Shown here piece after piece: positions 37,044 through 50,555 of a DNA stretch of 64,000 nucleotides. Every line of letters starts with the position of its first letter. Within the stretch, counting starts at the first letter, position 1. The DNA comes from Bacteroidota bacterium (GTDB lineage Bacteria; Bacteroidota; Ignavibacteria; OLB7), in NCBI GenBank assembly GCA_048498995.1, contig JBEHWX010000014.1, forward strand, positions 8,921 through 72,920. Direction: 5' to 3'. The notes below the pieces were generated by a model. That model saw nothing but the letters and a program-made list of their open reading frames with translations. It was not told the origin of the DNA and ran no database searches. Both the position numbers and the translations under genes were made by a program.

Positions 37044-38588
37044 ATGCCAGTCACACCAACATATCCGGGCGTCTACATCGAGGAGCTCCCGAGCGGCGTA
37101 CGGACCCTGATCGGCGTCGGCACGTCGATCACGGCCTTCGTCGGCCGCGCGCTCCGCGGCCCGGTCGATGAGCCGGTTCTGATCCACAGCTACGGCGATT
37201 TCGAGCGCACCTTCGGCGGCCTCTGGACCAAGAGCACCATGAGCTATCAGGTGCGCCAGTATTTCCTCAACGGCGGCTCGGACGCCATCATCGTCCGTAC
37301 CGTCGGCGCCTCGGGCACCCTCGCCGCCTTGTACGCGGCTCCGGCCCCCGCCGGAACCCTGACGATCTCCGCCGTCTCCCCCGGTGCCTGGGGCAACAGC
37401 GTGAAGATCAGCGTCGACAAAACCAATCTGATCGACATGGCCGACGCCGATCTGTTCCACCTGTATGTTACCGAGGTGGATCCGACCGACACGACCAAGA
37501 CCGTCAAGTACGAGCCCTTCTATAACGTCTCGGTCAATCCTGTTTCCCCCCGTTACATCGTGAAGGTCCTCGAGAACGAGTCGACGCTCGTGCGCGCCAC
37601 CGGAACGATCCCGGCCGACGCTCCGAATGCGCTTGCGTATACTTTCCTTGCCAGCGGCGCCGACGGTGCCGTGCTGACGGCGACCGAGGTGATCGGCAAC
37701 TCGGGGAACAAGACCGGCATGTACGCGCTCGAGAAGGCCGACCTGTTCAACATCCTCTGCCTGCCGCCGACGCTCAACGGCTCGGACGTTCTGGTCGACA
37801 TCGACACGGCCAGCTGGGGCGCCGCCCAGACCTATTGCAAGAAGCGTCGCGCCGTCGTGCTGATCGATCCGCCTGCGGCGTGGGACACGCTCGCCGAGGT
37901 GTACAACACGCCGGGCTTCACCAGCCTCAGCATCGCCGATGAGAACTCGGCCTTCTACTGGCCGTGGGTGGTGGTCTCCGATCCGCTGAAGGGGAACCAG
38001 CCGCTTTCGATCGCCCCGTGCGGCACGGTCGCCGGCGTGATTGCCCGCACCGATGCCGACCGCGGCATCTGGAAAGCTCCGGCCGGCATCGATGCCAACC
38101 TCGTCGGCGTTCAGTCGCTGGCCGTGAAGGTCACCGACGCCGAGAACGGCCAGCTCAACCCGCTCGGCGTGAACGTGCTCCGCACGCTGCCGGCCGCCGG
38201 CAACGTGGTCTGGGGCGCCCGCACCACCAAGGGTGCCGATCGCCTTGCCTCCGATTGGAAGTACCTGCCGGTGCGCCGTCTGGCCCTCTACATCGAGGAG
38301 AGCCTGTATCGCGGCACGCAGTGGGTCGTCTTCGAGCCGAACGACGAGTCGCTCTGGGCTCAGATCCGCCTGAACGTCGGTGCCTTCATGCACCAGCTCT
38401 TCCGCCAGGGTGCCTTCCAGGGCGCCAAGCCGTCCGAGTCCTACTTCGTCAAGTGCGACAAGGAGACCACCACGCAGAACGACATCAACCAGGGCGTGGT
38501 CAACGTCATCGTCGGCTTCGCGCCGCTGAAGCCGGCCGAGTTCGTCATCATCAAGCTCCAGCAGATCGCCGGGCAGATCGTCGCCTAA
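37044..38588 (+). CDS. Contractile tail sheath protein (eCIS/Afp2-4-like), paralogue S1
   Basis: An AGGAGA RBS precedes the N-terminus MPVTPTYPGVYIEELPSGVRTLIGVGTSITAFVG. The middle carries YALEKADLFNILCLPP. The C-terminus reads DWKYLPVRRLALYIEESLYRGTQWVVFEPNDE...FVKCDKETTTQNDINQGVVNVIVGFAPLKPAEFVIIKLQQIAGQIVA. Confidence 0.9.
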   Translation: MPVTPTYPGVYIEELPSGVRTLIGVGTSITAFVGRALRGPVDEPVLIHSYGDFERTFGGLWTKSTMSYQVRQYFLNGGSDAIIVRTVGASGTLAALYAAPAPAGTLTISAVSPGAWGNSVKISVDKTNLIDMADADLFHLYVTEVDPTDTTKTVKYEPFYNVSVNPVSPRYIVKVLENESTLVRATGTIPADAPNALAYTFLASGADGAVLTATEVIGNSGNKTGMYALEKADLFNILCLPPTLNGSDVLVDIDTASWGAAQTYCKKRRAVVLIDPPAAWDTLAEVYNTPGFTSLSIADENSAFYWPWVVVSDPLKGNQPLSIAPCGTVAGVIARTDADRGIWKAPAGIDANLVGVQSLAVKVTDAENGQLNPLGVNVLRTLPAAGNVVWGARTTKGADRLASDWKYLPVRRLALYIEESLYRGTQWVVFEPNDESLWAQIRLNVGAFMHQLFRQGAFQGAKPSESYFVKCDKETTTQNDINQGVVNVIVGFAPLKPAEFVIIKLQQIAGQIVA

Positions 38589-38616
38589 CCACCAACTCCA
38601 GCAAGGACAGTAAACA

Positions 38617-48956: not shown

Positions 48957-49001
48957 ATGTCCGGAGATACCAGGGGACAACATCAAACCGAGCTACGCGA
49001 C

Positions 49002-50555
49002 ATGCCAGTATCACCAACATATCCCGGCGTTTACATCGAAGACATTCCGAGCAGCGTCCGCACCCTGAGCGGGGTCGACACCTCGATCACCGCCTTCGTG
49101 GGACAGGCCAGACGCGGGCCGGTCAACGAGCCGGTCAGGATCTCCCAGTTCTCGGAGTTCGAGCGAATCTTCGGCGAAATCTGGTCCGACTGCGGACTCG
49201 GCTACGCCGTGCAGCAGTTCTTCACCAACGGCGGGACCGACGCGGTGATCGTGCGCGTAACGCGCATCACCGGAGGGCTGGCCGCCCGCGCCACGCGGAC
49301 GTTCACCGTCTCGCCGTCCGGCACGAACCTGCAGCTGGAAGCCGCGGACCCCGGCGTGTGGGGAAACAACGTCTTCATCACCATCACGCACAACACCGAC
49401 GGCACCTTCAATCTCATCGTGCATGAGAGAGCCGGAACGTTGGCGACCGATCAGATTCTGCGCGAGGAAGTGCACTACAACCTCTCGGTCCTGTCGACCG
49501 ATTCGCGCTTCATCACCGGAGTGCTGGCCAATGCCTCGGCGCTCGTGCGCGTCAAGGGAGCCAATCCCTCGGCGAAGCCTCTTGCGGTCACCTCCGCCCG
49601 CCTGCTCAGCGGAGCCGATGGCGATTTCATCGAGGAGGCCGATGTTCTCGGAGCCCAGGTCACGAAGTCCGGCATCTACGCGCTCGAGAAAGCCGATCTG
49701 TTCAATCTCCTGTCGATTCCCACCCTTCGCCGCGCCTCCGGGAGCATTCCGGCGACGGAGGTGAGTGTCAATACCTGGGTGGCGGCTCTCGCCTACTGCA
49801 AGACCCGCCGCGCGATGCTGCTGGTGGATCCGCCGGACGACTGGACCACCTATCAGGACGCGATCGACGATGTGAACGACGCCGCCACCTACGGTAAGCT
49901 CCGTGACGAGAACGCCATCATCTACTTCCCGCGACTGGTGGCCCCGGATCCGTTGATCGGCAACGACCTGCTGCCGTTCGTGCCGAGCGGCGCGGTCGCC
50001 GGCGTGATGGCGCGCATCGATGCCACGCGAGGAGTGTGGAAGGCGCCGGCCGGCACCGACACGAAAATCGAGGGGGTGGTCGATCTGACGATCAACCTCA
50101 ACGACGTCGCAAGCGGCCAGGTCAATCCACAGGGAATCAACGCCATCCGGCAGATGCCTGCCTCCGGCATCGTGATCTGGGGAGCGCGCACGCTCGAGGG
50201 ACTCGACCGGCTCATGTCGCAGTGGAAATTCATCAACGTGCGGCGCCTCGCGCTCTATATCGAGGAGAGCCTGCGCCGCGGCCTAATCTGGGCCGTCTTT
50301 GAGCCGAACGACGAATCGCTCTGGGCGCAGATCCGACTGGCGGTCAACGGGTTCCTCCACGACCTGCACCGTCAGCATGCCTTCGCCAGCTCCTCTCCGG
50401 CCGAATCGTATTTCGTCTCCTGCGACGCGTCGACGACGACGCAGGACGACATCAACAAGGGGATCGTCAACGTCGTCGTCGGATTCGCGCCGACGGTGCC
50501 GGCGGAATTCGTCGTCCTCAAGATCCAGCAGCAGGCGGGGCAGCCGACGCTGTAG
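49002..50555 (+). CDS. Contractile tail sheath protein, paralogue S8
   Basis: MPVSPTYPGVYIEDIPSSVRTLSGVDTSITAFVG; the C-terminus is divergent but homologous (FINVRRLALYIEESLRRGLIWAVFEPNDESLWAQIRLAVNGF...VVGFAPTVPAEFVVLKIQQQAGQPTL). Confidence 0.85.
   Translation: MPVSPTYPGVYIEDIPSSVRTLSGVDTSITAFVGQARRGPVNEPVRISQFSEFERIFGEIWSDCGLGYAVQQFFTNGGTDAVIVRVTRITGGLAARATRTFTVSPSGTNLQLEAADPGVWGNNVFITITHNTDGTFNLIVHERAGTLATDQILREEVHYNLSVLSTDSRFITGVLANASALVRVKGANPSAKPLAVTSARLLSGADGDFIEEADVLGAQVTKSGIYALEKADLFNLLSIPTLRRASGSIPATEVSVNTWVAALAYCKTRRAMLLVDPPDDWTTYQDAIDDVNDAATYGKLRDENAIIYFPRLVAPDPLIGNDLLPFVPSGAVAGVMARIDATRGVWKAPAGTDTKIEGVVDLTINLNDVASGQVNPQGINAIRQMPASGIVIWGARTLEGLDRLMSQWKFINVRRLALYIEESLRRGLIWAVFEPNDESLWAQIRLAVNGFLHDLHRQHAFASSSPAESYFVSCDASTTTQDDINKGIVNVVVGFAPTVPAEFVVLKIQQQAGQPTL

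Follow-up and report, generated by a model that had tools for sequence, protein, structure and literature searches.

The DNA analysed here, a window of 64,000 nucleotides (nt), is taken from contig JBEHWX010000014.1 of a Bacteroidota bacterium (assembly GCA_048498995.1, positions 8,921 to 72,920 of the forward strand). Between positions 37044 and 50555 of this window lie eight consecutive genes, here called S1 to S8, that encode sheath proteins of a contractile injection system (CIS). They form a genuine and old tandem array of eight functional sheath genes, accompanied by the stump of a ninth, and stand at the head of a CIS operon of the lineage II type. Contractile sheaths are usually homopolymers, and the Afp and PVC particles with their three sheath proteins are the known exception.

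The eight sheath genes

The eight open reading frames (ORFs) follow each other on the + strand, and each is complete with an ATG start. For S7 the ATG was used that is also taken in a sister assembly, and for S8 the start that opens the conserved MPVSPTYPGVY. They are listed below together with their score on a hidden Markov model (HMM) of the family and the number of conserved positions that each retains out of 189. The family HMM was built from foreign sequences only, and 77 independent single-copy sheaths score 719-905 bits on it.

37044-38588, + strand: S1, sheath paralogue of 514 amino acids (aa) with Pfam sheath domains; 809 bits, 178/189 positions; the most canonical copy
38617-40215, + strand: S2, sheath paralogue of 532 aa (Pfam); 754 bits, 175/189 positions; body sister of S5, 3' end converted with S1 and S3
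40506-42116, + strand: S3, sheath paralogue of 536 aa (Pfam); 709 bits, 166/189 positions; B-type clade with S4 and S7
42273-43850, + strand: S4, sheath paralogue of 525 aa (Pfam); 691 bits, 163/189 positions; derived N-terminal arm (FTYPGVGL)
43878-45443, + strand: S5, sheath paralogue of 521 aa (Pfam); 719 bits, 176/189 positions
45474-46988, + strand: S6, sheath paralogue of 504 aa (Pfam); 712 bits, 172/189 positions; no significant conversion tract with any copy
47138-48715, + strand: S7, sheath paralogue of 525 aa; 494 bits, 121/189 positions; the most derived copy, with a strongly diverged domain 1
49002-50555, + strand: S8, sheath paralogue of 517 aa (Pfam); 675 bits, 159/189 positions; adjoins the tube gene

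The Pfam domains Phage_sheath_1 and Phage_sheath_1C are matched by all eight products. S1-S6 and S8 reach the gathering scores of both domains. S7 stays below both (26.6 bits where 31.4 are required, and 22.9 where 26.9 are required), despite which it scores 494 bits on the family HMM. AlphaFold2 models were made for S1 (mean predicted local distance difference test score, pLDDT, of 86.8) and for S7 (pLDDT 82.4), and both display the sheath fold. The top Foldseek matches of the two models are solved CIS and phage sheaths. The best fold match is 9EZM, the sheath of Halogeometricum borinquense (E 1.9e-39 for S1 and 9e-35 for S7; template modelling scores of 0.77/0.81 and 0.73/0.79, respectively), and Streptomyces Cis2 comes next. 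The motifs of the handshake strands (PTYPGVY... and PAEFV.IK.QQ) are conserved in sequence, with a derived N-terminal arm in S4 and S7 and a derived C-terminal arm in S7. Overall, the eight copies are 39-62% identical to each other in pairwise comparison. By its profile, S1 looks like a normal single-copy sheath, while the other copies appear progressively more derived; in domain 1 of S7, 41 of 76 conserved positions are retained. The first-pass annotation had described eight tandem sheath genes, and this description stands: Pfam and HMM searches find sheath domains in 8/8 products (S7 below the Pfam thresholds), and the models of S1 and S7 give the sheath fold. The array is very probably real and made of functional paralogues.

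An array of this kind could also be made by the assembler, if it had strung together variants of one sheath gene from several strains, or repeats that were collapsed or wrongly joined. The contig is metagenome-assembled, and exact repeats of 50-120 nt are common to the 3' ends of the genes. A 120-nt exact repeat of S1 and S2 is the very point at which a second NCBI assembly (GCA_048498215.1) breaks: its contig JBEHYK010000002.1 begins at 38406 within this repeat, and the first 99 nt are present at both 38406 and 40033. Such a contig start is typical of a repeat-induced break, and it leaves the link of the S1 body to its tail in one assembly only. However, each junction of the array, consisting of a 3' end, a unique spacer and a diverged 5' end, is unique sequence. 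The second assembly reproduces every junction from the S1 tail onward, through S8 to the baseplate; it is identical to the window over 38406-51443 (13,038 nt compared) and shows two mismatches over 39002-60555. Logan contigs from seven separate runs, made by another pipeline, are colinear with 46745-50330 at 98.9% identity. They span the S6 tail, S7, a sheath gene relic and S8 in a sister strain that is 1.1% diverged. An exact look-up of S1 in the contig index gave no match, and those of S3 and S5 matched the second NCBI assembly only, so that the junctions from S1 to S6 are supported by two assemblies at most. Since the gene bodies are 43-60% identical in DNA, the copies are not strain variants of one gene, and amino acid differences of 50-70% are not expected of such variants. 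An assembly artefact, which the first-pass annotation had named among the events that would undo its claim, is therefore highly improbable.

The number of copies is exceptional. Sheath genes were counted at the 80 best genome loci from 185,579 species (within ±10 kb) and at 83 further loci (80 from a metagenome scan and three carrying P0002, the foreign sheath closest to S1). Among the 80 genome loci, 77 contain one intact sheath gene, one contains a split gene, one contains two genes and one (Hormoscilla GUM202) contains three. All 83 further loci, of which only 30 have at least 3 kb of upstream sequence, contain one. Taken together, one intact sheath gene is found in 160/163 related loci and a single split gene in a 161st (~98% single). 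The metagenome-assembled genome (MAG) L005 of Kapaibacterium also contains one sheath gene. Eight copies in tandem are thus as unusual as had been claimed. In the searchable literature, whose coverage is incomplete so that absence is no proof of novelty, no report of a CIS locus with more than three sheath genes was found, nor any paper naming the accessions of this locus.

Conservation profile and gene conversion

The conservation of the copies differs strongly along the protein. With S1 as reference, the segments and their mean identities over all pairs are as follows.

S1 residues 1-87: N-terminal arm and first part of domain 2; 0.57
S1 residues 88-222: domain 3; 0.28
S1 residues 223-398: rest of domain 2; 0.52
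S1 residues 399-514: domain 1; 0.75 (0.91 within S1-S6)

The strongly divergent centre that had been noticed from the sequence is domain 3, where the copies average 28% identity. Its reading as a surface domain is likewise borne out, as the variable segment aligns with the domain-3 insertion that differs among the three Hormoscilla paralogues and with the surface domain of Cis2. The sheath of Streptomyces Cis2 consists of three domains, and its flexible, surface-exposed domain 3 is unresolved in the structure (PMC10066040). The Foldseek alignment of S1 on Cis2 covers ~57% of S1. Length, isoelectric point (pI), charge and hydropathy of domain 3 were tried as discriminators of the copies and rejected, as the copies are not separated by them.

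Conserved ends around a variable core had been taken for a design of the array. The same profile is found in the ordinary, single-copy members of the sheath family: the per-site conservation of the eight paralogues correlates with that of 55 orthologues (Spearman 0.75). Conservation among the paralogues is below that among the orthologues in each stretch of 20 residues, with values of 0.54-0.59 versus 0.87 in the N-terminal arm. The N-termini are not homogenised at the DNA level either. The identity of codons for the same amino acid is 0.46-0.54 between the copies in this region, which is the baseline of the sheath genes.

At the 3' end the situation is different. Over the last ~115 aa, pairs among S1-S6 are 85-95% identical in amino acids and 83-92% in DNA, with a same-amino-acid codon identity of 0.65-0.87 versus ~0.5 in the rest of the genes. 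The near-identity of the C-terminal ~120 residues that had been ascribed to all copies is thus confined to S1-S6; towards these, the C-terminal segments of S7 and S8 show 48-50% and 65-67% amino acid identity, respectively. For S1 and S2, an identity of ~95% over ~370 nt had been given. The high identity is confirmed, at ~92% over the last ~357 nt, and it includes one long exact run.

38385-38504 and 40012-40131, + strand: 120-nt exact repeat of S1 and S2; longest common substring, gene-conversion tract

The chance probability of this run is ~3e-4 even at a background identity of 87%.

How much of this similarity calls for gene conversion was judged against foreign genes. Sheaths of other phyla are 80-86% identical in amino acids to S1-S6 over the last ~115 residues. 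In the same segment, 34 foreign genes with a G+C content at third codon positions (GC3) above 0.8 show 78-82% nucleotide identity to S1-S6, and a synonymous-codon identity of 0.61 (maximum 0.67). Because GC-rich foreign genes already reach such identities, most of the apparent homogenisation of the 3' ends is the product of purifying selection and GC3 codon bias. For genome scans in general, this means that near-identical DNA ends of paralogues should be compared with orthologues from similarly GC-rich genomes before conversion is invoked.

What exceeds this baseline is found in short tracts. Patches of 98-100% identity are common to S1, S2 and S3 at -330 to -240 nt from the stop codon and to S1 and S2 at -210 to -90, and tracts of 90-95% identity link S2, S4 and S5 at -390 to -300. 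Tested by permutation of the polymorphic sites, the tracts of S1-S2 (global p 0.001) and S1-S3 (global p 0.002) are significant and those of S2-S3 borderline (p 0.012-0.07). The signals of S3-S4, S4-S5 and S2-S4 are weaker, and no significant tract was found between S6 and any other copy. Neighbour-joining trees, built with our own implementation, are in conflict with each other. The variable gene bodies yield a well-supported tree with S4+S7 (bootstrap 100), S3+S4+S7 (97) and S2+S5 (92, and 92-99 across trees). The tree of the 3' ends groups S1+S2+S3 (66) and S4+S5 (69), and its grouping follows physical adjacency. This conflict therefore points to short-tract conversion between neighbouring copies. 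Segment incongruence together with tracts beyond the baseline, as expected of concerted evolution, is seen for S1-S3, is suggestive of conversion for S2/S4/S5 and is lacking for S6-S8. Through short-tract conversion, the last ~350 nt have become partly homogenised in S1-S3; this stretch encodes domain 1 with the tube contact and the C-terminal handshake strand. The gene conversion proposed earlier thus holds for the 3' ends of S1-S3 (p 0.001-0.07) and not for most of the identity. It is real but local, acting at the 3' end and mainly among S1-S3, and secondary to strong purifying selection.

The further proposal of a cassette system is largely unsupported by this analysis. Neisseria pilE/pilS and Borrelia vlsE are gene-conversion cassette systems for surface variation, and like the array they combine tandem homologous units, conserved ends, variable centres and some conversion. 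In contrast to these systems, all units of the array are complete genes. There is no single expression site, and silent partial donors are absent apart from one relic of ~65-95 nt. The significant tracts lie in the conserved last ~350 nt, among S1-S3 only, and do not move the variable segment. The window ORFs scanned encode no recombinase-type Pfam domain, and the array region shows no sign of an invertible element.

Age, turnover and selection

Comparison of the bodies places the paralogues no nearer to one another than to sheaths of other phyla. Orthologues of single copies could be found elsewhere. P0249 (JGI sample 3300049823, locus L188) is 66.5% identical to S4 and groups with it (bootstrap 81), and the two group with S7 (100). 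P0264 and P0248, from other metagenomes, group with S8 (bootstrap 100). These S4-type and S8-type orthologues are only 55-66% identical to the copies of the array. The contig L184 (Logan SRR11659449) opens in a sheath 3' tail, followed by a 507-nt spacer, an S8-like gene, three sheath relic fragments (2141-2265, 2403-2502 and 2703-2823) and the tube gene (L184:1-2830). Given the S4- and S8-type orthologues and the layout of L184, the duplications predate the lineages of these relatives, and copies have been gained and lost. The tube protein of L184 falls in the same 90%-identity cluster as that of the array, while its S8-type sheath is only 58% identical; the sheath copies evolve far faster than the tube. 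In P0248 (646 aa, JGI sample 3300056388), domain 3 is internally duplicated, as residues 1-212 and 198-643 both align to the domain-3 region of S8. Behind P0249, after a spacer of ~125 nt, an ORF starts with MGGSPISNPG at the contig end (L188:1371-1525). This start is similar to N-termini of the S4/S7 type, a hint that sheath genes stand in tandem in the organism of P0249 as well.

A loss of the same kind is recorded in the array itself.

48879-48973 (core 48900-48964), + strand: 3'-end relic of a ninth sheath gene, between S7 and S8; encodes ...GFASLKPAEFVIRLRQ

The relic is recognised by nhmmer with the codon alignment of S1-S8 (E 8.8e-9). It is the ninth copy of repeat family D11 and is 91% identical to the S1 copy. 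The array therefore loses as well as gains copies, and its growth would have proceeded through tandem duplications, with copies arising and dying out. The short spacers of the array have the motif CCACCAA...AAGGA in common, so that the duplication unit included the spacer.

Two other histories were considered. A block duplication of [S2 S3 S4] into [S5 S6 S7] fits the pairs S2~S5 and S4~S7 and was dropped, as S3 groups with S4+S7 and not with S6. Repeated horizontal acquisition fits the finding that foreign sheaths are about as similar to each copy as its own paralogues are. It is disfavoured by the point tree with relatives added, in which all 11 sequences (S1-S8, P0249, P0264 and P0248) fall into one clade (with weak bootstrap), by the common spacer motif and by the tandem order.

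One or two copies, for example S1, might do all the work, with the others being drifting products of unequal crossing-over. This would agree with the family HMM, on which S1 alone scores as a normal single-copy sheath and the others score progressively lower, down to the 494 bits of S7. The GC3 of S4, S5 and S7 (0.73-0.78) is lower than that of S1 and S2 (0.88-0.89), the relic shows that copy loss occurs, and long ORFs easily remain open in a genome of 64% G+C. However, comparison of the strains reveals purifying selection on the two most aberrant copies. In S7 there are 6 nonsynonymous differences for 14 synonymous ones (a ratio of nonsynonymous to synonymous polymorphism, pN/pS, of 0.14; binomial p 2e-5 versus neutrality), and S8 shows 1 and 14 (pN/pS 0.02, p 5e-8 versus neutrality). 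S7 and S8 are therefore functional genes. Moreover, every copy has kept the 50-66 residues that are invariant in family alignments of 63 and 69 sequences, and S4- and S8-type orthologues are retained elsewhere at only 55-66% identity, and have thus survived a long divergence. Redundancy or decay of most copies is accordingly judged decidedly unlikely.

Two further observations concern base composition and strain differences. The G+C content dips to 0.589 in 42001-44000, centred on S4, and is ~0.63-0.69 elsewhere. In comparison with L085, the T4_baseplate-domain gene (51409-52140) shows 4 nonsynonymous and 1 synonymous differences and the tube gene 0 and 0, which are small numbers.

Operon context and proposed composition of the sheath

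The array is preceded by a putative regulator and followed by the genes of a CIS.

35210-36535, + strand: putative transcription regulator; Pfam HTH_23/HTH_28 at the N-terminus, LuxR/GerE or sigma-70 region 4 at the C-terminus
50869-51396, + strand: inner tube protein (Phage_T4_gp19, Pfam E 2.4e-45)
51409-52143, + strand: T4_baseplate-domain protein (PF12322, Pfam), at the same position in related loci
52140-53681, + strand: variable-length protein of 513 aa between the tube genes and the cap gene; no Pfam match
53678-54934, + strand: tail terminator or cap (Pvc16_N, Afp16-like; Pfam E 4e-42)
55231-57210, + strand: AAA+ ATPase (Afp15-like; Pfam AAA and WHD)
58778-59395, + strand: second tube-family protein (CIS_tube, PF19266; precomputed Pfam on the second assembly, coordinates converted)
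59754-61435, + strand: split spike, with a 375-aa gp27/GPD-like ORF (59754-60881) followed by a 185-aa Phage_base_V ORF (60878-61435)
63590-63946, + strand: gp25-like baseplate wedge or sheath initiator (GPW_gp25, Pfam E 3e-17)

From its position, the regulator may control the operon. The GPD assignment of the first spike ORF rests on a faint match in the syntenic gene of L092. The product of 52140-53681 has counterparts of 298 aa in L092 and 973 aa in L184, of which only the two ends are conserved, and it behaves as expected of a putative length-determining (tape-measure-like) protein. Such a protein is said to be missing from lineage II loci. The large baseplate genes continue past the window end on the sister contig. 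An Afp11-type baseplate protein was sought there, and the 999-aa and 907-aa products after gp25 have no Pfam family on record.

In dbeCIS, a database of extracellular CIS (eCIS), a cluster is defined by the joint presence of tube (Afp1/5), sheath (Afp2/3/4), cap (Afp16), AAA ATPase (Afp15), spike (Afp8) and gp25 (Afp9) genes (PMC6899500). Here, Phage_T4_gp19, CIS_tube, sheath, Pvc16_N, AAA, Phage_base_V and GPW_gp25 are found together. The sheath genes come first, the cap and ATPase genes directly follow the tube genes and the spike is divided over two ORFs; a split afp8 is stated for the eCIS subtypes IIa-IIc (PMC6899500). Because of this architecture and the split spike, the locus is of the eCIS lineage II type and not, as had been proposed, of the Afp/PVC type (subtype Ia). 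The latter follows the order afp1-afp18, with the tube gene first, a contiguous VgrG and Afp16/Afp15 near the end. The best full-length solved sequence match, the Streptomyces coelicolor Cis2 sheath (8BKY/8BL4/9GTP, subtype IId; E 4e-77 and 3e-74 for 8BKY and 8BL4), also argues against the Afp/PVC type. The Afp and Pvc sheaths are shorter (354-466 aa) and align to S1 only over its C-terminal ~190-290 residues.

Close counterparts are the single-sheath lineage II loci found in many phyla (such as L092 with P0002, or L001-L174). These contain the same order of tube gene, T4_baseplate protein, unknown protein, Pvc16_N cap, AAA ATPase and split spike, and their sheath is 50-63% identical to S1 with the same per-site conservation profile. 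In the P0002 locus, the closest foreign one, whose sheath is 63% identical to S1, the single sheath gene stands in the same gene order. Unlike the array locus, these loci have an eCIS_core (DUF4157) gene. In L092, and also in the relative L184, such a gene lies downstream of the cap gene (after the ATPase gene in L092), whereas no homologue (PF13699) was found by tblastn anywhere in the window. The stretch of ~1.5 kb at 57210-58778 holds short ORFs without Pfam matches and a long antisense ORF.

Calling this locus "extracellular" would be premature, since its closest solved relatives act from inside the cell (PMC10066040, PMC11566945). The Streptomyces system CIS-Sc is cytoplasmic and the haloarchaeal one of Halogeometricum is contact-dependent, both acting from inside the cell. 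Cis2 and 9EZM each build the sheath from one protein, with ~27-32% sequence identity to the array; the best stretch of 9EZM (sequence E 3e-74) is limited to S1 residues 206-508. The gene at 61815-63086, located between those of the spike and gp25, encodes a protein of 423 aa that contains a prolipoprotein diacylglyceryl transferase (LGT) domain. Such a membrane protein in the cluster could mean that the machine is membrane-associated rather than released.

Two kinds of spacers are found within the array. Those of S1-S2, S4-S5 and S5-S6 measure 27-41 nt. With the ATG at 47138 taken as the start of S7, the S6-S7 spacer has 149 nt; S3, S4 and S8 are preceded by spacers of 156-290 nt (S2-S3: 290 nt). 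A Shine-Dalgarno (SD)-like AAGGA(G) precedes S1 (37014-37043, here AAGGAG), S2 (38587-38616), S5 (43848-43877), S6 (45444-45473) and the tube gene (50839-50868). Scans for sigma-70 promoters and terminators gave counts at or below the shuffle expectation, and the spacers contain no promoter-like site and, on the + strand, no terminator-like site. Nowhere in the array does the Bacteroidota -7 motif TANNTTTG occur, and the only Rfam match in the window, a tRNA, lies outside the array. Spacer folding was not informative (z-scores of -2.2 for the whole S2-S3 spacer, with one strong hairpin, and +0.75 for the S8-tube spacer). This arrangement is most simply read as co-transcription of the array and the other genes of the operon.

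The copies might nevertheless be used unmixed, with different particles, cells or conditions employing different paralogues or subsets. This would give different outer surfaces for the docking of fibres or accessory proteins, for anchoring or for escape from recognition of the sheath surface. Such alternative sheaths would explain why divergence peaks in the exposed domain 3 (28% identity). They have a parallel in the three tandem Hormoscilla sheaths, which differ almost only by domain-3 insertions, and in P0248, the S8-type relative with an internally duplicated domain 3. The two spacer contexts, SD-like motif with short spacer (S2, S5, S6) versus neither (S3, S4, S7, S8, with long spacer), and the hairpin in the S2-S3 spacer would fit separate use as well. 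However, the genes lie on one strand in what is apparently one operon, whose spacers lack promoter- and terminator-like sites and which contains no Bacteroidota-type promoter motif inside the array. No invertible element came to light in the array region and no recombinase-type Pfam domain among the window ORFs scanned, and proteins of one cell with compatible handshakes would be expected to co-polymerise. Alternative sheaths are therefore possible, though rather unlikely.

The reading that we favour, with about even confidence and by analogy, is that the eight genes are co-expressed and co-assembled into a heteromeric sheath. It is favoured because subunits with compatible handshake arms that are made together should co-polymerise, and because of the precedent of PlPVC1 (PMC12546770). 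In that particle, Pvc4 makes up the initiator ring and Pvc2 and Pvc3 form alternating layers, with an extra knob of Pvc3 that docks the fibres (PMC12546770). The eight genes would be co-transcribed with those of the tube, cap, ATPase and baseplate, and their products would co-polymerise on one tube. S1-S6, with their canonical domain 1 and mostly canonical N-terminal arms, would form the sheath body, each showing a different domain 3 of ~135-148 aa. Special positions, for example in rings next to the baseplate or the cap, would fall to the copies with a derived domain 1 (S7 and S8) or a derived N-terminal arm (S4 and S7), in the manner of Pvc4 and Pvc3 in PVC. Through conversion of their domain-1 ends, the copies would continue to fit one another as well as a single tube.

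Several observations weigh against this heteromeric sheath. One sheath protein suffices in this CIS lineage, where 160/163 loci have one intact gene and a 161st has one split gene, and the sheaths of Streptomyces, AlgoCIS and Anabaena are homomeric (PMC10066040, PMC8894135). Co-assembly is argued from analogy with PlPVC1. No SD-like motif precedes S3 (40476-40505), S4 (42243-42272), S7 (47108-47137) or S8 (48972-49001), which all follow the longer spacers of 149-290 nt, and the S2-S3 spacer (40216-40505) contains a strong 13-bp GC hairpin, GGGCGGGGUGU...ACAUCCCGCCC, that lacks a U tract. In view of these missing motifs, longer spacers and the hairpin, expression is perhaps unequal or separately controlled. 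The domain 3 segments are of similar size and all acidic (pI 4.3-5.5), so that no gross functional difference is visible. Further, the S1 body-tail join spans the 120-nt exact repeat and is supported by one assembly, and the monophyly of the paralogue clade has a bootstrap of only 36-51%, with long-branch attraction being possible.

A stricter form of the heteromeric sheath would be a programmed heteropolymer, in which eight subunit types follow in a defined order or ratio along one sheath. The handshake and domain-1 differences of S4, S7 and S8 would set the position, and the six body subunits would give a patterned surface that docks components or diversifies exposure, conserved in a Kapaibacterium-like clade. 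This is unlikely; if true, it would go far beyond the three subunit types known in Afp/PVC.

Like the array, Afp2/3/4 and Pvc2/3/4 (eCIS subtype Ia) are several tandem sheath paralogues in one CIS operon, which have a common core for handshake and tube contact and differ in their outer additions. They differ from the array in number, with three copies versus eight and a relic. Their co-assembly has been shown in PlPVC1 (PMC12546770). The nearest relatives of S1-S8 are single-copy, and the expansion is independent of that in Afp/PVC. From these comparisons, the locus is best placed among the CIS that have more than one sheath paralogue, as a variant in which these expanded independently and much further than in Afp/PVC. 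Hormoscilla sp. GUM202 (L047:5260-11593) is a second, independent sheath multiplication in the family. It has tandem copies of the same sheath family that differ in domain 3 (806, 688 and 531 aa, with large Thr/Gly/Val-rich or Lys/Glu-rich domain-3 insertions). Its copies are near-identical over their N-terminal 87 and C-terminal ~300 aa, whereas S1-S8 are diverged throughout. Because the Hormoscilla copies are near-identical outside domain 3, their duplication or homogenisation is recent.

As a second, independent origin of sheath specialisation of the Afp/PVC kind, eight diverged and selected sheath genes offer a natural test of how many subunit types a contractile helical lattice can hold. 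They also test what keeps the subunits compatible, which here would be the ultra-conserved domain 1, partly maintained by conversion. The freedom of the exposed domain 3 to vary can be tested in the same way and bears on CIS engineering (surface display, fibre docking, tagging).

The host is a Kapaibacterium-like member of the Bacteroidota, since its MetK (220-1380) is 87-88% identical to proteins of Kapaibacterium, "Chlorobi" and Kapabacteria MAGs. Upstream of the CIS region, the window further contains the gene of a 1805-aa hybrid CheB-CheR-PAS-histidine kinase-receiver protein (5252-10669, - strand), a tRNA gene (11686-11776, - strand) and the gene of a 1896-aa protein without Pfam match (12337-18027, + strand).

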